From: Candidatus Nomurabacteria bacterium
GTDB lineage: Bacteria; Patescibacteriota; Minisyncoccia; Phycocordibacterales; UBA9973
Assembly (NCBI GenBank): GCA_023267375.1
Contig: JAHFNJ010000007.1
Span: 1 to 50,290 of the forward strand
Direction: 5' to 3'
Length of the DNA stretch: 50,290 nucleotides
Part shown: positions 1,859-9,564 of the stretch, one piece after another
Layout: every line of letters begins with the position of its first letter
Numbering within the stretch: the first letter of the stretch is position 1
Notes under the pieces: model-generated
Seen by the model: only the letters and a program-made list of their open reading frames with translations
Told to the model about the DNA's origin: nothing
Database searches by the model: none
Program-made: the position numbers and the translations under genes

Positions 1859-3280
1859 ATGAAACGAACAGATGCAGATATAGATGAATTGCTGTCTCGG
1901 GGCGTTGGTGCGTTTATCGACCCAGACGGAACATTCAAGAAGAAACTCAAAACATCACCCGAGAAGGTGGTGATTAAATTTGGTGTGGATCTTACCCGCC
2001 CCGACCTTCACTTGGGCCATGCTGTGGTGCTCCGCAAACTCCGCCAGTTCCAGGATTTGGGCTGCAAGGTGATTTTTTTGATCGGCGACTACACGACCAT
2101 GATCGGCGACCCGACCGGCAAGAGTAAAGTTCGTCCAGAAATCAGCCAACAGGAAGTGGAAGAAAATATGAAGACCTTTTTGGCGCAGGTGAACAAAATT
2201 TTGAAAGTTGAATTTGATGCGAATGGCAATGTGATTGATACGCCTATCTTCAGTTGGATCAGAAACTCTGATTGGTTTGTCGGCGTGACTGATATCCAGC
2301 CAAGCAAAGATTCAAAAACAAACATCAACATCAACGAAGGCGGAAAAGACAAGAGTTACCCAATTCCTCCGGGAAGTTTTGTCGGCAAAGCAGTCCTCTA
2401 CGAGAATACTCGTATGCAAAAGACTCGTTTGAAAAACGAACAAATATTTACTCGCTCGCTTACGAATATCATTTCAGTGTTGCGCCATCTGACTCACGCA
2501 CGTCTCATTGAACGTGATATGTTCCAGGACCGCATTACCTCTGGCAACGAGCTCTATATGCACGAATTGCTCTACCCAGTGCTGCAGGGTATCGACTCTG
2601 AAGTGCTCCATCGTGTGTATGGCTCATGCGACCTTGAGGTTGGTGGAACCGATCAGACATTCAACATGCTTGTCGGCCGCGATGTCATGAAGATGAACAA
2701 ACAAGAACCGCAAGCAGTGCTCGCATTCGAACTCTTGGTGGGTACTGATGGTACAGAAAAAATGTCCAAGTCGCTCGACAACTATGTCGGCATCACTGAT
2801 GCGCCAGAAAATATGTATGGAAAAATCATGTCGATTCCTGACAGTGTGATTACGCACTATTTCGAACTCTGTACCTTTACGCCGACTGATGATGTACTTG
2901 AAATTAAAAAGACACTCGAGAAAGGTGCCAAGAATCCACGCGATATCAAAATGCGTTTGGCACGAGAAATTGTAGCGATTTACCATGGCGAAAAATTGGC
3001 TGAGCAGGCTGAAAGTAATTTTGTGCAGACGTTCCAAAAAGGTCTCGCTCCAGATACTATGCCAGAAGCATCAGCAAAAAAAGGTACAGCACTTTCTGAA
3101 ATCTTAATCACTGAAGGATTGGTAGAATCAAAATCAGATTTCCGACGACTCATTTCCGAAGGCGCTATTAAAATCATTTCAGGTGATGTTGAAGAAAAAA
3201 TTCTTGATCCATTGGTAGTAATATCAGAGACAACAATCGTGAAAGTAGGGAAGCATCGATTTGTAAAAATCACGGTCTAG
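1859..3280 (+). CDS. tyrS: Tyrosyl-tRNA synthetase
   Basis: PDLHLGH (HIGH) and KMSKS motifs, GGTDQ.FN, C-terminal S4-like domain (KVGKHRF). ATG at 1859 preferred over the ORF-track start at 1850. Confidence 0.97.
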   Translation: MKRTDADIDELLSRGVGAFIDPDGTFKKKLKTSPEKVVIKFGVDLTRPDLHLGHAVVLRKLRQFQDLGCKVIFLIGDYTTMIGDPTGKSKVRPEISQQEVEENMKTFLAQVNKILKVEFDANGNVIDTPIFSWIRNSDWFVGVTDIQPSKDSKTNININEGGKDKSYPIPPGSFVGKAVLYENTRMQKTRLKNEQIFTRSLTNIISVLRHLTHARLIERDMFQDRITSGNELYMHELLYPVLQGIDSEVLHRVYGSCDLEVGGTDQTFNMLVGRDVMKMNKQEPQAVLAFELLVGTDGTEKMSKSLDNYVGITDAPENMYGKIMSIPDSVITHYFELCTFTPTDDVLEIKKTLEKGAKNPRDIKMRLAREIVAIYHGEKLAEQAESNFVQTFQKGLAPDTMPEASAKKGTALSEILITEGLVESKSDFRRLISEGAIKIISGDVEEKILDPLVVISETTIVKVGKHRFVKITV

Positions 3281-3288
3281 TACAAAAA

Positions 3289-3341
3289 AAGCAAAACAAA
3301 AACCGTTCTCGACAATAGTCGGAACGGTTTTTGTTTTGCTT
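3289..3341. terminator. Long bidirectional intrinsic terminator between convergent genes
   Basis: AAGCAAAACAAAAACCGTTC-tcgac-aata-gtcg-GAACGGTTTTTGTTTTGCTT, a ~24-bp near-perfect stem with A/T tracts on both sides. Confidence 0.85.
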
Positions 3342-3370
3342 GACCTACTCCCGAGAGGGAGGTGCGAAGC

Positions 3371-3553
3371 TTAATTGAAGTCTCTTTCACTACTTAGAGA
3401 ATCTGACTCATCGTCATCATCATAACTGTCAGCATCCCCCAAATCGTCTGGGACGTCGTCTGCCAAGTCATCGGTTGCATCGTCAGTGAAGTCCTTACTG
3501 AAGTCAACTTCAGTGTCGGTTGGAGCGCTCCACTCATCATCGAGATAACTCAT
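3371..3553 (-). CDS. Small, very acidic hypothetical protein (60 aa)
   Basis: 25/60 residues are D/E. ATG lies 6 nt after a TAGGAT -10-like hexamer, and a terminator follows. Confidence 0.7.
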   Translation of the reverse strand: MSYLDDEWSAPTDTEVDFSKDFTDDATDDLADDVPDDLGDADSYDDDDESDSLSSERDFN

Positions 3554-3684
3554 AGATATATCCTAAAAACATACAATTATTTACTAAAAAACGACCTTAA
3601 AAATTACTTAAATTTTACGTGCATCCTTTTTAACAAATCGCGGTCCGCTTGGCAAGAGGCAACGGGGTTATCTGTGGAAAACTC

Positions 3685-4164
3685 TTACTTAAACTTCTCA
3701 CAGGCGAAGCAGGTAAGGCCCACAGCGATAGCATCGATCTCGTCATCGATCTGTTTTTTAGCTGGGAGGGTGATTAAATTCTTCACCATTTTACGTACAT
3801 CTTCTTTATCCGCATGGCCATAGCTCGTAACTGCAATTTTTATTTGGAGTGGCGTATATTCAAATACTGCTATGCCGGCGCGTGATGCTTCGTAGATAAT
3901 GACGCCGCGTGCTTCCGAGACCCCCATGACTGTTTTTTGGTTTGTCGTCATGAAAAGGGTTTCGATTGCGAGTGCCTCAGGTTTGTATTTTTTTATGAGC
4001 GTCGCAATTTCTTCGCCGATAGAAAATATTCTCGCTGGCAATTTTGCTTTTTTATCAGTACGAAAACAATCCGAATACACGATTGTTTCCTTGCCACCCG
4101 CATTTTTTTCAAGTACGGCAATGCCGACACGTTCATATCCAGGATCAATGGCTAGGATTCGCAT
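3685..4164 (-). CDS. ruvC: Crossover junction endodeoxyribonuclease RuvC
   Basis: RILAIDPG, LAIETLF, EYTPLQIKIAVTSYGHADK, DDEIDAIAVG motifs. Confidence 0.96.
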   Translation of the reverse strand: MRILAIDPGYERVGIAVLEKNAGGKETIVYSDCFRTDKKAKLPARIFSIGEEIATLIKKYKPEALAIETLFMTTNQKTVMGVSEARGVIIYEASRAGIAVFEYTPLQIKIAVTSYGHADKEDVRKMVKNLITLPAKKQIDDEIDAIAVGLTCFACEKFK

Positions 4165-4167
4165 AAA

Positions 4168-4196
4168 TGTCTAATAACTAATTTCTAATGACTAAA
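4168..4196. repeat. Heptamer array (CTAATNN) at one end of the four-helix-bundle gene
   Basis: tgt-ctaataa-ctaattt-ctaatga-ctaaa. The inverted counterpart is at 4560-4590. Confidence 0.7.
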
Positions 4197-4567
4197 GGGT
4201 TTTGTTTCGACTTGTTTATGATACTAACAAAAATAAGCTGGAACTCGATTGTTTCTTGAATTAAAGGTTGAATATCGGCAGTTAAATCAGGGATAATAAA
4301 ACTTAGTGTTTTTAACCAGTACTCTGTTTCCTTAGATTCCTTTTTACAAATCCCTAGTTTATGCTCAAAATCCTTTTTTGATTCAGCACAATCAGCTTCT
4401 GCGTAGTTTGCTCCGATACTTGTACCAGATCGGGTACACTGACTAATAATGGGAATTGAAATGGTGTCTTTAGGTATTTTTTTGAGTAATGCGATAAGAT
4501 TTTTTGAAAATTCAAGCGTTCTTTTACTCAAATCATATTTCTTATCATTTTGTATTCCGTTAGACAT
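4178..4567 (-). CDS. Four-helix-bundle protein (23S rRNA intervening-sequence protein family)
   Basis: DLSKRTLEFS...SGTSIGANYAEA...SKKDF..KL.IC.KES.ET.YWL signature. Confidence 0.88.
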   Translation of the reverse strand: MSNGIQNDKKYDLSKRTLEFSKNLIALLKKIPKDTISIPIISQCTRSGTSIGANYAEADCAESKKDFEHKLGICKKESKETEYWLKTLSFIIPDLTADIQPLIQETIEFQLIFVSIINKSKQNPLVIRN

Positions 4568-4590
4568 TAGAAATTAGGATTTAGTCATTG
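4560..4590. repeat. Inverted heptamer array at the other end of the four-helix-bundle gene
   Basis: cattagaaattag (4565-4577) is the exact reverse complement of ctaatttctaatg (4178-4190). tttagtcatt (4580-4589) is the reverse complement of 4187-4196. Confidence 0.7.
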
Positions 4591-4610
4591 AGAAGTTTTT
4601 ACGAATGCTG

Positions 4611-5135
4611 CTACTCTGCATTCGTAAAAACTTCTTGCACTTCGTCATTTTCCTCAAGCTCGTCTACAAGCGCTTCAAGTTTAGTCGCGTCTTCTTCGGT
4701 AATAGGAACCGTCATGTTTGGTGTCCAGATGTGATCATTTTTTGTGAACGACCATGTTGTCGATCCGATAGCACCGAGTGCCGATCCGTGTTCAGAGAGA
4801 ATAAATCGTATTTCCTGCGCTGCTTTATTGCGATTGGTGGTAAGTGCTTCAATAATGAGCGCTACGCCACCTGGTCCGTATGCTTCGTAGGTGAACCGTT
4901 CAAATTGTTCTCCTGGTTCGGTGGCTTTCTTTATCGCACGTTCAATGTTGTCATTTGGCATATCGACATCACGAGCTTTTTGGATTGCCGCCTTCAGTCC
5001 TGGGGCTTCGCGATTGCCGCCAGATTTCTTCGCTTCAAGCGTGATAACGCGGACGAGTTTTCCGAAGATCTTACTCGTCTTTCCTCCTTGTGCCGCCTTC
5101 TTATATTTTTTCTTTTCCCACTGTGAATGACTCAT
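4611..5135 (-). CDS. yebC: YebC/PmpR family protein, shortened form (174 aa)
   Basis: MSHSQW.KKK, MPNDNIERAIKKA, YEAYGPGGVA..IEALTTNRNKA, C-terminal LEENDEVQEVFTNAE. Confidence 0.93.
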   Translation of the reverse strand: MSHSQWEKKKYKKAAQGGKTSKIFGKLVRVITLEAKKSGGNREAPGLKAAIQKARDVDMPNDNIERAIKKATEPGEQFERFTYEAYGPGGVALIIEALTTNRNKAAQEIRFILSEHGSALGAIGSTTWSFTKNDHIWTPNMTVPITEEDATKLEALVDELEENDEVQEVFTNAE

Positions 5136-5173
5136 GAATAGAGCTTATATTTTTTAACTTTCCTGTGCAAGTT

Positions 5174-6223
5174 TTACTTGAAGAAGAAAAACCCGACGGC
5201 CATGATGGCATACGCCACCAGAAGCTGGACGCCTTCGAGCCAGTTTGATTCGCCGTCTTGGACAACGAGATTCGCAATAAAGACAGAGAAAATAATTGCC
5301 GCGAGTTCAAAGGTGTTGAAGACCAGACTCATTTGCTCTTGGAAAAAGAGACTGATCAAGACAAGAAGTGGCGCAGCGAGCATGGCGATCTGTGTTGCGG
5401 AGCCAATAGAAATCTGCAGTGATAAATCCATACGATTTTTCATTGCCATCGTGATAGCTGACGTGTGTTCAGCCGCATTACCAATGATGGCCACAAAGAC
5501 CACACCGATGAAAAGTTCGGTCCAGCCGAATGCTGCGACGATCGGTTCGATAGACGCAACAAGGATTTCAGAAAGAAATGCAACAAGGACAGTTGAGATA
5601 AAAAGAATAATGACACTTTTTTTGATGCTCCAATTTGGCTGCAGGTGCCCGACCTCTTCGGTGTAGAGGTGTTTGTGAGTAAAAAGCGAGAAAGAAATGC
5701 TCGCAATATAAGCCAGTATCATTAGTACTGAAACTATTATTGAGAGGTGTTCTATAACAACAGGGCCGTGGGTTGGTGCTGTTTGGAAAAATATGGCAGG
5801 GATGACAAGCGCGATGACGGCAAGCAAAAGAGTAGAAGAGCTTGCGAGAATTGCTGTCTTATTGAATGTCTGCTTTTTGTGGCGAGTACCACCAGCAATC
5901 ATTGCTGCTCCTAACACTAAAAGGAGGTTGCCGATAATCGAACCAGTTATAGATGCTTTTACTACTTCAATGAGTCCAGCTTTGAGTGCGAGTACGCCGA
6001 TAATTATCTCTGTTGCGTTGCCAAAGGTTGCATTCAAGAGTCCGCCAACCGCTGGACCAGTGTGTGAAGCGAGTTCTTCGGTGGCGTTACCGATATATTT
6101 TGCGAGCGGTATTATGCCGATTGCGGCGAAGAAGAATACCCATGTCGGGGCAACGTGCATCAATGATGCAATGATTGCGATCGGAACAAAAATAAGAAGC
6201 CCGTTAAGTATTTTTTCAAACAT
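5174..6223 (-). CDS. Ca2+/H+ exchanger (CAX/ChaA family)
   Basis: Alpha-repeats GGLLNATFGNATE and AIIGNAAEH, GESNWLEG, about 10 TM segments. Confidence 0.93.
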   Translation of the reverse strand: MFEKILNGLLIFVPIAIIASLMHVAPTWVFFFAAIGIIPLAKYIGNATEELASHTGPAVGGLLNATFGNATEIIIGVLALKAGLIEVVKASITGSIIGNLLLVLGAAMIAGGTRHKKQTFNKTAILASSSTLLLAVIALVIPAIFFQTAPTHGPVVIEHLSIIVSVLMILAYIASISFSLFTHKHLYTEEVGHLQPNWSIKKSVIILFISTVLVAFLSEILVASIEPIVAAFGWTELFIGVVFVAIIGNAAEHTSAITMAMKNRMDLSLQISIGSATQIAMLAAPLLVLISLFFQEQMSLVFNTFELAAIIFSVFIANLVVQDGESNWLEGVQLLVAYAIMAVGFFFFK

Positions 6224-6243
6224 CGAAGTAGTTGAATTATTTT

Positions 6244-7266
6244 TTAATGAATTAATTTATTTTGATGCATTTCTCCATCAGGATGATCGAATGAAAGGTG
6301 GTCGTATGCTTTTTGGGTGGCAACACGGCCTCGCGGTGTGCGCTCAAGGAGTCCGCGTTGGATTAAGTATGGTTCAACCACTTCTTCGATTGTTGATTCT
6401 TCTTCAGAAGTTGCCGCAGCGATGGTATTTAAACCGACTGGTCCACCACCGAATTTTTCAATAATTACTTTCAGGACATTGCGATCGGATTCAGAAAGAC
6501 CGAGTTCATCGATGCCGAGCAATGAGAGTGCCATGAAAACTGTTTTTTTATCCAAATCTTTTTTATGTACTTGTGCGTAGTCGCGACAGCGTTTCAAGAA
6601 ATAGTTTGCGGTACGGGGAGTGAAGCGGGCGCGCTTCGCTATTTCATCAATTCCACCTTTATCAATATTTATTCCCAAAATTTTTGCACTTCGCCCGATG
6701 ATTTTCATGATTTCCTCTTCGTTATAGAACTCGAGTCGGAAGACGCCGCCCGAGAAACGGGAGCGAAGCGGCGCAGAGAGGAGTGCGATACGTGTTGTGG
6801 CTGCGACGAGCGTAAACGGTGGCAGGTCAAGCTGGATGGTGCGGGCTGACGGGCCTTTGCCGATGATAATATCGAGTACTCCGGATTCCATGGCAGGGTA
6901 GAGCACCTCTTCAACCATTTTGTTGAGTCGATGGATTTCGTCGATGAAAATGATGTCGCCCGGGGAAAGATTGGTGAGAATAGACGCCAAATCGCCGACT
7001 TTTTCGATAGCCGGACCGGAGGTAATCTTGATCTGTCGGCCGGTTTCTTTGGCAATAAGGTGAGCCAGGGTGGTTTTCCCCAGTCCAGGAGGACCATAAA
7101 AGAGGATGTGTTCAGCAGGGTGGTTGCGCTCTTCAGCGGCCTGAAGGAGGATTTTAAGGTTCTGTTTAATGCTTTCTTGGCCGATATACTCTTCCCAGGC
7201 GCCTGGACGCAGGGTTTGGTCTAAAAAGAGCTCATCGGGGATATTTTTTTCTTTTTCTTCCATCAT
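6244..7266 (-). CDS. ruvB: Holliday junction branch migration helicase RuvB
   Basis: LRP...YIGQ, Walker A GPPGLGKTT, Walker B FIDEIHR, GLLERTPRGR. Confidence 0.98.
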   Translation of the reverse strand: MMEEKEKNIPDELFLDQTLRPGAWEEYIGQESIKQNLKILLQAAEERNHPAEHILFYGPPGLGKTTLAHLIAKETGRQIKITSGPAIEKVGDLASILTNLSPGDIIFIDEIHRLNKMVEEVLYPAMESGVLDIIIGKGPSARTIQLDLPPFTLVAATTRIALLSAPLRSRFSGGVFRLEFYNEEEIMKIIGRSAKILGINIDKGGIDEIAKRARFTPRTANYFLKRCRDYAQVHKKDLDKKTVFMALSLLGIDELGLSESDRNVLKVIIEKFGGGPVGLNTIAAATSEEESTIEEVVEPYLIQRGLLERTPRGRVATQKAYDHLSFDHPDGEMHQNKLIH

Positions 7267-7318
7267 TTTGTATAGGGTGGATAATACTTTGTAAATAAAA
7301 GGGGAACAGGAGAGGGTG

Positions 7319-7347
7319 TTGACAATTTATTTCGAGTATGCTATACT
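7319..7347 (+). promoter_or_regulatory. Consensus sigma70 promoter, divergent from ruvB, with no ORF downstream
   Basis: TTGACA-17 nt-TATACT with an extended -10 TG. Confidence 0.8.
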
Positions 7348-7353
7348 CTCTCC

Positions 7354-7620
7354 AGTAAACGATTTTCAACAGCTTATACACAGAGTATATCACAGGTTCG
7401 CTGGACCTTGTGTTTCCGCTGTGCGATACTTGAGACCTCGTTAGTTTTACTTGAAAAAGGGTTTAAATCTCTAAGCAGTCAGCCTTCCGGTTCTAGATTT
7501 TTAATTAGGACGTTCTGGATAATTATTTATAATTTTTTCTGGAGCTATCCTCTGAGGATTTCTTACTTAGTGTGCACAGCATGTTAAGGACTGTTTAGAG
7601 ATTTAAGCTCTTATTCTCCA
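7354..7620 (+). ncRNA. Candidate structured ncRNA with 6S-RNA-like fold
   Basis: 24-bp closing stem 7457-7480/7589-7612 whose three non-Watson-Crick positions are all G-U on the + strand; central bubble; apical wobble-containing hairpin ~7506-7550; extra 5' hairpin ~7385-7431; lies between a promoter and a terminator with no ORF. Confidence 0.55.
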
Positions 7621-7662
7621 CAAAAAATAAAAACCACCCGTGAAGGTGGTTTTTATTTTTTG
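7621..7662. terminator. Bidirectional intrinsic terminator
   Basis: Perfect 18-bp stem CAAAAAATAAAAACCACC-cgtgaa-GGTGGTTTTTATTTTTTG. Confidence 0.9.
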
Positions 7663-7669
7663 TGCATAT

Positions 7670-9391
7670 TTATTTTGCGGTTTCGTTTGATCCTAACTCC
7701 TCCTCAAGATCAACCACGCTCTGTAGTTCGGCAATCGACGTCACTCCCTTAAGAATTTTAACAACACCATCTTCGCGCATGTTGAGAATCCCTTGATGCT
7801 GCGCGACGGTATCTACTTCTCGCTCAGATGGATTGTTTGGAATAATTTTTTCAATCGATTCATCATTATAAATGGCTTCAAAGACACCGATACGTCCTTT
7901 GTATCCGGTGACATTACACTGATCACAACCAACTGGTTCATAGAGCATGAAGGGTTTCTCCTTGTCGATACCGTAGAATGACAAATCCTTTTTATTTTCT
8001 GCCGCCTTGTCGAGAATTTTTTTAATTGTTGCCGTTTCTTTTTCATCTGGCGTTTTTTCTTTACGGCAGTGCGGACAGAGTTTACGTACGAGACGTTGAG
8101 CGATTGAAAGCGTGAGTGCTGACACTAAAATTTTTGGATTCACTTCAAGATCGATCAAGCGGGGGATAACACCAGCTGCGTTGTTGGTGTGGAGTGTTGA
8201 GAACACCATGTGTCCGGTGAGCGCTGACTCCACGGCAATTTTAGCTGTTTCTGCATCGCGGATTTCACCGACCATGATGACATCTGGGTCTTGGCGGAGT
8301 GCTGAACGTAATCCCTCGAGGAATGTATATCCTTTTTCTTCTTCTACTTGTGTTTGAGTAACGCCTTCAACATGGTATTCGATTGGGTCTTCAATGGTAA
8401 TTATCTTAATTTCAGGAGAGTAAATACGACGCAAAAAGGAATACAGGGATGTTGTTTTACCGGAACCGGTCGGACCAGTCAAGAGAATCATGCCATGTGG
8501 TTTCATAATTTCCTTTTGAATTATTTCAAAGAGTCGCGGTTCGATGCCTAGGTCTTCAAGTTTTACTTGGGTGGTTTTTGGATTTAAAATACGCATCACG
8601 ATTGATTCGCCGTATGCACCAGGGATCATTGAAGTACGCATCGAGATTTCTTCGCCACCTAAAAAGATAGAAAAGCGTCCATCCTGAGCGTTGCTCGAGG
8701 TAAGTTTCATTCCTGAGAGGAGTTTCAATCGAGAATTTAATAGTTTGTATGTTGTTGAAGGGAAGAAGAGTACGTCTTGCAGTACGCCGTCCAAACGGAA
8801 ACGGAGACGTACCTGTGTTTCTTCTGGTTCAATATGCACGTCTGATGCACCAACAGCAATTGCGCCCGCTAAAATAATTTCGAGCATATGCGAAACGTGA
8901 TGTGTCGCTTTTTCATGGGCGTTATCTTTTATTTCTTGCTCGACATCTTTAACTGACTTTATTTTTTTAGTTACTTCAGCCAGCATTTCATTCGAAATAT
9001 CAAGACCGCCAGCTTTGGTTTCTTCAGCATACGAGAGTTCTTTGTATCGTTCCCAGACTTTCTCCATCGAAGCTTCAGATGCCATGTAAAAAATTGGCGT
9101 GAAGCCGTGATTAATGAGTTCTTCTTTGAGTCGGTCAACTTCAGGCTTGCCAGGGGAGCGAACAGCTACATGGATTGTTTTCCCAAGGAGTTTAAATGGT
9201 GCGACATCAAGTGCCCGTGCATCTTTTTGGGGGATAACACGAAGGGCTTCATTTTCAATCGGCACATTTGCTAAATTTACTGATGCAATACCATATTTTG
9301 ACTGAGCGAGTACTTGCACAAGCTCCTCTTCTTCTTGTCGTCGGAGATCTTCGAGTCTTTTTTCCTCTTTTTCTTCATCAAATTGAACCAT
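7670..9391 (-). CDS. Type IV pilus/type II secretion assembly ATPase (PilB/GspE family)
   Basis: ASDVHIEP, Walker A GPTGSGKTT, TIEDPIEY, RQDPDVIMVGEIRD, Zn motifs CPHC and CDQC, GYKGRIG. Start at MVQFDEEK (9391); the ORF-track upstream extension looks non-coding. Confidence 0.93.
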   Translation of the reverse strand: MVQFDEEKEEKRLEDLRRQEEEELVQVLAQSKYGIASVNLANVPIENEALRVIPQKDARALDVAPFKLLGKTIHVAVRSPGKPEVDRLKEELINHGFTPIFYMASEASMEKVWERYKELSYAEETKAGGLDISNEMLAEVTKKIKSVKDVEQEIKDNAHEKATHHVSHMLEIILAGAIAVGASDVHIEPEETQVRLRFRLDGVLQDVLFFPSTTYKLLNSRLKLLSGMKLTSSNAQDGRFSIFLGGEEISMRTSMIPGAYGESIVMRILNPKTTQVKLEDLGIEPRLFEIIQKEIMKPHGMILLTGPTGSGKTTSLYSFLRRIYSPEIKIITIEDPIEYHVEGVTQTQVEEEKGYTFLEGLRSALRQDPDVIMVGEIRDAETAKIAVESALTGHMVFSTLHTNNAAGVIPRLIDLEVNPKILVSALTLSIAQRLVRKLCPHCRKEKTPDEKETATIKKILDKAAENKKDLSFYGIDKEKPFMLYEPVGCDQCNVTGYKGRIGVFEAIYNDESIEKIIPNNPSEREVDTVAQHQGILNMREDGVVKILKGVTSIAELQSVVDLEEELGSNETAK

Positions 9392-9464
9392 TGTATTTGT
9401 AATAGTAGCCCTTTTAGGCTTTAAAAACAAGGGTAAATTTCCTATGTTGAACCTATAATTCCCC

Positions 9465-9493
9465 TTGACAAATAAGGGTAAACATGATAGACT
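9465..9493 (+). promoter_or_regulatory. Sigma70 promoter of the 682-aa orphan gene
   Basis: TTGACA-17 nt-TAGACT. Confidence 0.65.
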
Positions 9494-9564
9494 ACGAAAA
9501 AATACTAACATACATTAATTCCGTTCAAATTCCGTCTAACCGTTAACTAAATCCAGATAATCAA

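Follow-up and report, generated by a model that had tools for sequence, protein, structure and literature searches.

A new family of structured non-coding RNA encoded between pilB and ruvB in Paceibacteria

The window, i.e., the whole stretch of 50,290 nt of Candidatus Nomurabacteria DNA that was analyzed here, contains the gene of a structured RNA in the intergenic region between ruvB and pilB (positions 7319-7664, plus strand). This RNA represents a new family, which is robustly supported and is contained in no family of Rfam 15. Judged by its sequence, the gene is a stand-alone non-coding transcription unit, and sequence comparison shows that the RNA is kept throughout two lineages of Paceibacteria, with one copy between pilB and ruvB.

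The transcription unit is delimited by a promoter and a terminator (Table 1). A promoter scan of positions 7100-7800 led to the identification of a single promoter-like site, TTGACA-17-TATACT at 7319-7347, which is the promoter that the original prediction had proposed and which carries a TG extension in addition. The -35 and -10 hexamers are separated by 17 nt in the window and by 16-17 nt across all 80 homologous loci. In its sequence, the site is a near-perfect extended -10 promoter of the sigma-70 type, from which transcription of the RNA would start at about position 7354. The unit had been described as some 270 nt devoid of open reading frames. In fact, it is overlapped by two mechanically called ORFs (7316-7444, 42 aa; 7408-7587, 59 aa), but neither of them yielded a match in a Pfam search, and over the ORF stretch the length differs by a non-multiple of 3 in 64 of the 80 homologues, so that there is no conserved reading frame. 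The hairpin terminator that had been predicted at the end of the unit is present as well, with 20 computed pairs rather than the 18 originally counted. It is A/T-rich with a GC core and fully symmetrical, and it is located between the RNA and the pilB stop codon; owing to its symmetry, it probably terminates the convergent pilB as well. Such an extra hairpin is missing from most relatives, where P1, the helix that closes the RNA, is used together with a U-run. In 70 of the 80 copies, the 3' strand of P1 directly adjoins a run of at least five T, and thus P1 itself would constitute the intrinsic terminator there. The window copy is one of six copies that lack the T-run after P1, and it has the separate hairpin instead.

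Table 1. Features of the RNA gene and its neighborhood in the window.
Feature	Position	Strand	Description
ruvB	6244-7266	minus	divergent from the RNA gene
-35 hexamer TTGACA	7319-7324	+	exact at the equivalent place in 76/80 homologous loci
Extended -10 TGcTATACT	7339-7347	+	TG 7339-7340, hexamer 7342-7347; TG in 78/80 loci
Variable 5' leader	7354-7454	+	about 100 nt here, 32-173 nt in relatives
TGaTATACT	7384-7392	minus	probable extended -10 of ruvB, inside the RNA leader
P1, 5' strand	7455-7480	+	26 positions; inner 16 bp nearly invariant in sequence
P2 hairpin	7481-7492	+	3-4 bp; abuts P1; compensatory changes in 3/4 pairs
P3-P3b-P4-P4b arm	7495-7563	+	conserved core 7507-7519 with 7538-7551
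P5 hairpin	7566-7588	+	without linker to P1 3' strand; 10/10 pairs compensatory
P1, 3' strand	7589-7614	+	pairs with 7455-7480
Separate hairpin terminator	7619-7664	+	perfect 20 bp, loop 6, T-rich tail
PilB/GspE-type ATPase gene (pilB)	7670-9511	minus	convergent with the RNA gene; stop at 7670

Relatives of the locus were gathered by means of RuvB from contigs representing one genome per species. All of the RuvB relatives belong to the CPR and are labelled Paceibacteria, Nomurabacteria or Parcubacteria, with some bulk-submitted MAGs labelled Saccharibacteria. By blastn, the region upstream of ruvB was matched in 78 of 80 loci. A covariance model that was built from the alignment (R1) matched the window and each of the 79 loci with upstream DNA once in sense orientation, with 98-169 bits; the single locus without an R1 match (L045) begins inside ruvB. 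In antisense orientation, R1 scored 27-61 bits compared to the 98-169 bits in sense orientation, which fixes the strand of the RNA. There is one RNA copy in the 50-kb window and one per locus, and a search for the P1 motif elsewhere in the window returned only the two arms of the RNA and chance-level matches with 3 mismatches. Scanning metagenome contigs for a pattern and filtering the matches with R1 contributed 12 typical members and three divergent ones. The RuvB of one divergent member (L094) was used as bait to reach a sister lineage, whose RuvB is about 67% identical to that of the window. Four further contigs of this lineage (L318-L321) were obtained, all of which carry the RNA in the order pilB-RNA-ruvB(-ruvC). 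Altogether, the RNA has been found between pilB and ruvB in about 100 genomes.

The gene neighborhood itself shows several further characteristics. The order pilB, RNA, ruvB, ruvC, a gene for a small protein of about 59 aa, and tyrS on the opposite strand is common to lineages whose RuvB proteins are about 67% identical (L318-L321; window 2279-7266), whereby a Ca2+/cation exchanger gene and a yebC-like gene are inserted after ruvB in the window. In two loci of one lineage (L036 and L040), the RNA has been relocated together with its own promoter: it precedes the 16S rRNA gene by about 430 nt, in the same orientation. Here, the RNA promoter GCTTGACAA...TGCTACACT closely resembles the separate 16S promoter GCTTGACAA...CATATACT (L036:5768-6560, L040:4099-4280). 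One locus harbors a SAM-I riboswitch (RF00162, 51.1 bits) downstream of ruvB (L078:4833-4940, minus strand).

In order to describe the fold, the sequence was analyzed thermodynamically and by comparison among relatives. The plus strand of 7355-7662 has a minimum free energy (MFE) of -103.1 kcal/mol (z -7.3), which was reached by none of 100 shuffles, compared to -75.6 kcal/mol (z -4.2) for the reverse strand. The conserved unit extends from P1 to P1 (about 7455-7614 in the window, roughly 145-168 nt in relatives, about 155 nt overall), and the alignment presents it as a closed four-way junction consisting of P1, P2, the P3-P4 arm, and P5. The junction linkers comprise 0, 2 (CU/AU), 2 (UA in 71 of 80 sequences), and 0 nt, and with linkers this short the junction is predicted to be closed and four-way. 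For this arrangement, stacking of P5 directly on P1 and of P2 on P3 is predicted. The 24-bp stem of the original prediction (7457-7480 with 7589-7612) proved to be exact, including its three non-Watson-Crick pairs, which are all G-U on the plus strand (G7460-U7609, U7462-G7607, and G7475-U7594); with A7455-U7614 included, the helix covers 26 alignment columns. What had been taken for an asymmetric bubble and a single apical hairpin inside this stem, however, resolves into three covarying helices that meet P1 in the four-way junction.

The helices differ in what is conserved in them. In P1, 98.5% of the alignment cells are paired. Compensatory changes were seen at 15 of its 26 pairs and mostly lie toward the outer end, where 10 pairs covary without restriction; the 16 pairs of the inner part hardly vary on either strand. 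One pair of P2 occurs as C-G in 47, as G-C in 13, and as A-U in 4 sequences of the alignment. The core of P4, with its tandem U-G/G-U and its internal loop of 1x2, is nearly invariant (AGGAC-GUYYUGG / CUGGRRC-UA-UCCU). The register of P3 in the window was taken from the MFE fold (7495-7503 with 7553-7561), and the apical tip of the P3-P4 arm is variable, with an insert of 4-22 nt in relatives. Likewise, the loops of P2 and P5 differ in sequence and length among relatives.

Covariation was assessed over 61 pairs. For these pairs, 91.4% of the cells are paired, a share that drops to 39-50% once the partners are shifted by 1-3 columns, and changes on both sides occur in 41 of the 61 pairs. None of 500 shuffles reached any of five covariation measures. 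A mutual-information scan recovered the proposed helix pairs, and among candidate tertiary pairs and pseudoknots beyond the helices it gave none that was convincing. The original prediction had left the choice between a divergent 6S RNA and a new sRNA and had referred to covariance in relatives; with a structure that is conserved there and shows compensatory changes, with an independent transcription unit, and with no counterpart in Rfam 15, it is the new sRNA that is supported.

One pair of P1 deserves separate consideration. G7475-U7594 is G-U in all 80 sequences, and at the same position all six sequences of the sister clade have A-C (L094:1810-1966, L084:545-707, and L318-L321 at about 2242-2431 on the minus strand). 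The transcribed strand of the sister clade is fixed by its own TTGACA-17-TGnTATAAT promoter and by its U-run. G-U and protonated A-C are isosteric wobble pairs. Retention of the wobble through a change on both sides, instead of a switch to a Watson-Crick pair, would point to a specific recognition site. The sister-clade RNA also shows an additional U-G two pairs outward of the A-C, and its P5 hairpin retains only 3 bp, around a CACC(A) loop.

These data also bear on the question of whether the locus acts at the level of DNA, either as a MITE or as a large bidirectional terminator of pilB and ruvB. Such an element would be in line with the terminal inverted repeats of 26-28 bp at the RNA gene and with the position at the 3' end of pilB. 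However, we ascribe practically no probability to it, since the sequence is present once per locus and nowhere else in the 50-kb window, R1 matched none of 80 viral contigs picked by a loose motif pattern, and the position is fixed in about 100 genomes. Moreover, the unit has its own consensus promoter, its internal helices covary, and an invariant mismatch that is either G-U or A-C makes sense only as RNA on one strand. A plain terminator or 3' element of pilB was rejected on the basis of the conserved promoter and the four covarying helices.

The leader, i.e., the region between the -10 hexamer and P1, shows no common fold among relatives, and the covariance model needs none of it. Thus, the 5' hairpin at about 7385-7431, which had been predicted and is indeed present in the MFE fold, lies within a non-conserved region, and the extra 5' domain that had been proposed is not supported: the leader varies between 32 and 173 nt, and the sole motif that recurs in it, an extended -10 element, is read from the other strand and aimed at ruvB. 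From the alignment, the leader appears to be a variable spacer outside of the conserved fold. On the ruvB strand, it matches TGNTANNNT in 69 of 80 loci, mostly as TGnTATAAT or TGnTATACT and mostly 24-46 nt downstream of the -10 hexamer of the RNA. The element is missing in L036 and L040, where the RNA does not adjoin ruvB. In the window, it probably constitutes the ruvB promoter (Table 1). With the ruvB promoter inside the RNA leader, the two units would begin head-on, and their 5' ends would overlap by about 10-35 nt. For promoters in such an arrangement, promoter interference on ruvB-ruvC is likely.

It could be suggested that this interference is the actual purpose of the locus and that the RNA is secondary, whereby a very strong promoter firing head-on over the ruvB promoter would set ruvB-ruvC expression by promoter occlusion or antisense overlap. 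The TGNTANNNT matches just downstream of the RNA -10 hexamer in most loci agree with this explanation, as does the order pilB-RNA-ruvB, which is kept even at 67% RuvB identity. Yet a 155-nt structure would not be needed for this purpose, although it is under strong purifying and compensatory selection, and in L036 and L040 the RNA has persisted at a distance from ruvB and has kept its promoter. We therefore consider this explanation to be very improbable.

With respect to expression, the metatranscriptomes of the study from which the window originates (X14-X16) contained nothing that matched the window; in the DNA runs, its organism reaches a depth of only about 3-6x. Of the words sampled from a close relative (L046), up to 54% occur in RNA runs. 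Contigs from two soil (X17, X20) and two wastewater metatranscriptomes (X19, X22), which were assembled and unstranded and may include DNA carry-over, cover L046:2783-2961, which corresponds to the RNA. In the two small soil runs X17 and X20, the depth is zero on the pilB side and over most of ruvB, beyond position 3076. These data support that the L046-like RNA is a discrete transcript and suggest that it is a relatively abundant one. The ends of the metatranscriptome contigs sit at strain-variable positions and do not map the ends of the RNA. Some wastewater contigs of X22 (L046:2466-2911, 46-89x) join both conserved P1 strands and skip 99-323 nt in between; most likely, these are relatives with other interiors or assembly joins across the inverted repeat.

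The contig ends matter for another explanation, according to which the RNA is a precursor for cleavage. In this case, the 26-bp P1 would be an RNase III substrate, the leader and the tail would be removed, and the product would be either the trimmed junction RNA or the freed P1 duplex. P1 runs without interruption for more than about two helical turns, the leader, being variable, is probably dispensable, and several metatranscriptome contigs end inside P1 at L046:2934. This position, however, lies in the outer, variable portion of P1, in which strain differences cause breaks in assembly graphs, and is therefore unreliable as an RNA end. Furthermore, processing alone gives no explanation for the conserved P4 core. 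Overall, such a precursor seems improbable to us.

As for the function of the RNA, the reading that we prefer is that of a new, class-wide, abundant protein-binding RNA, and we would give it an even chance of being correct. According to this reading, the RNA would be part of an RNP or would serve as decoy for a protein, and would not regulate by base-pairing as an sRNA. Sequence constraint is found inside helices and there is no conserved single-stranded seed, which argues for a protein-recognized scaffold or decoy rather than for an antisense regulator. Putative recognition sites would be the inner 16 bp of P1 with the obligatory wobble and the P4 segment with the tandem G-U and the 1x2 loop, whereas the peripheral hairpins, which keep only their pairing, look like scaffold. 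P1 might in addition seal both ends of the RNA and terminate its transcription. The strength of the promoter together with the class-wide single-copy distribution points to a housekeeping role. As candidate partners, we would name, with decreasing probability, RNA polymerase, RNase III or other double-stranded RNA-binding proteins, and the neighboring Ruv proteins. It could also be that the invariance of both P1 strands reflects the templating of a product RNA or recognition by RNase III instead.

A far more speculative idea, which we regard as a long shot, is that the RNA is a subunit or a specific decoy of a novel RNP that is essential across Paceibacteria. In its concrete form, the RNA would be a Holliday-junction mimic that titrates or regulates the Ruv resolvasome. 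This idea derives from the near-perfect four-way junction of the RNA and from the fact that ruvB-ruvC are kept adjacent, with interlocked promoters, across deeply diverged lineages. Holliday-junction mimicry would parallel 6S RNA, which imitates an open promoter.

The CPR (Patescibacteria), of which hardly any member has been cultured, account for a large part of the diversity of bacteria, and their genomes are very small. In this context, an RNA that is kept in every relative examined, is driven by a promoter of rRNA grade and is constrained down to a single wobble pair is likely to do something central. The present family adds a well-defined orphan RNA that is represented by about 100 sequences and described by a model of four helices, with two candidate sites for protein binding, and it suggests that the reduced CPR genomes hold housekeeping RNAs beyond rRNA, tRNA, tmRNA, RNase P RNA, and SRP RNA. 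If the RNA should indeed be a decoy of polymerase or of a recombination protein, it would be a new case of an RNA that mimics a DNA structure.

In order to relate the RNA to known families, the window was compared with Rfam 15. At the gathering score, no family matched the RNA, and at E<10 neither the 521-nt region nor the 179-nt core gave a match to any family, 6S-type families included; the Rfam comparison for 6S and other families that the original prediction had pointed to thus turned out negative. In 20 homologous loci, no 6S-type family was found either. The Rfam output was limited to terminator-like noise, tRNAs, a 16S start, and one SAM riboswitch elsewhere. ARAGORN reported no tRNA or tmRNA. 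A literature search for 6S or structured RNAs in CPR, Patescibacteria or Parcubacteria brought up nothing relevant. RNase P RNA, 5S rRNA, K-turn, tRNA-like or YrlA RNAs, self-cleaving ribozymes, and SRP RNA are all represented in Rfam and were rejected as none of them matched; a GNAR loop or an AGCA motif is characteristic of SRP RNA, and the RNA has neither. A riboswitch or cis-regulatory leader was rejected as well, since the downstream gene pilB points toward the RNA gene in the window, as it does in most loci, and the 16S rRNA gene of L036 is separately promoted.

Among the known systems, 6S RNA (SsrS; RF00013, and the related 6S-Flavo, RF01685) comes closest to the RNA in its general layout. 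The closing stems of known 6S RNAs are bulged. Both RNAs are stand-alone, strongly promoted and about 150-200 nt long, and both have their ends paired in a long closing helix and a second long arm opposite to it; moreover, the RNA resembles 6S RNA in that it is non-coding, present in one copy per genome and apparently abundant. An independent transcript is indicated by the promoter in 76-78 of 80 loci and by the RNA-only coverage in the relative, whereby the abundance is only suggested. 6S RNA is composed of a closing stem, a central single-stranded bubble, and a terminal stem-loop, and its pRNAs measure 14-20 nt (PMC3847290). In the present RNA, the closing stem and the terminal arm are found, but the center is a putative closed four-way junction with two covarying hairpins and linkers of 0-2 nt instead of a large open bubble. 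In addition, there is no covariance-model similarity, the closing helix is uninterrupted over 24-26 bp, and its inner part is invariant on both strands with an obligatory wobble pair.

Against this background, it might be that the RNA is a functional counterpart of 6S RNA. P1 would then correspond to the downstream duplex and P3-P4 to the upstream duplex. The strands of the junction would take the part of the open bubble in the sigma-70 polymerase, P2 and P5 having melted or been displaced, and the invariant inner 16 nt on the 5' side of P1 would serve as template for a product RNA of about 16 nt, by which the enzyme is released. Size, the strong sigma-70-type promoter, the apparent abundance, and the single copy fit to 6S RNA. 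The conserved inner P1 has about the length of a pRNA (14-20 nt; PMC3847290), and the unpaired UA on the 3' strand after the upstream arm, present in 71 of 80 sequences, may take the place of a -12/-11-like element. However, no 6S-type Rfam model was matched at E<10 on the 179 nt, and there is no open bubble, as P2 and P5 covary as helices and the linkers measure 0/2/2/0 nt. An uninterrupted P1 of 24-26 bp is also unlike the closing stems generally known from 6S RNAs. Thus, we consider a functional counterpart of 6S RNA to be an unlikely, minority alternative, and the divergent 6S RNA of the original prediction, which would be a rod with an open bubble, does not agree with the closed junction.

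Y RNAs, including the bacterial YrlA, which bind Ro/Rsr proteins, have a long stem that is formed by the ends and contains a conserved protein-binding sequence, a multi-helix module on top, and a U-run at the end. The RNA shares with them the sequence-conserved stem formed by the ends, the multi-helix top, and the U-run end. In contrast, it matches none of the Y_RNA or YrlA-type models of Rfam, it has no conserved loops that resemble a T-loop or D-loop, and its hairpin order is unlike the permuted tRNA mimic of YrlA. A tRNA-like, tmRNA or YrlA-type RNA was rejected, as neither ARAGORN nor Rfam returned one and the loops of P2 and P5 are variable. With the orphan structured RNAs raiA, ROOL, OLE, and HEARO, the RNA has in common the strong covariation, the restriction to a single lineage, and the discovery via intergenic conservation. 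It differs from them in that no sequence or structure match was obtained in Rfam 15, in that it is far smaller than ROOL, OLE, and GOLLD, and in that its position at one housekeeping locus, pilB-ruvB, is fixed throughout a whole class of the CPR.
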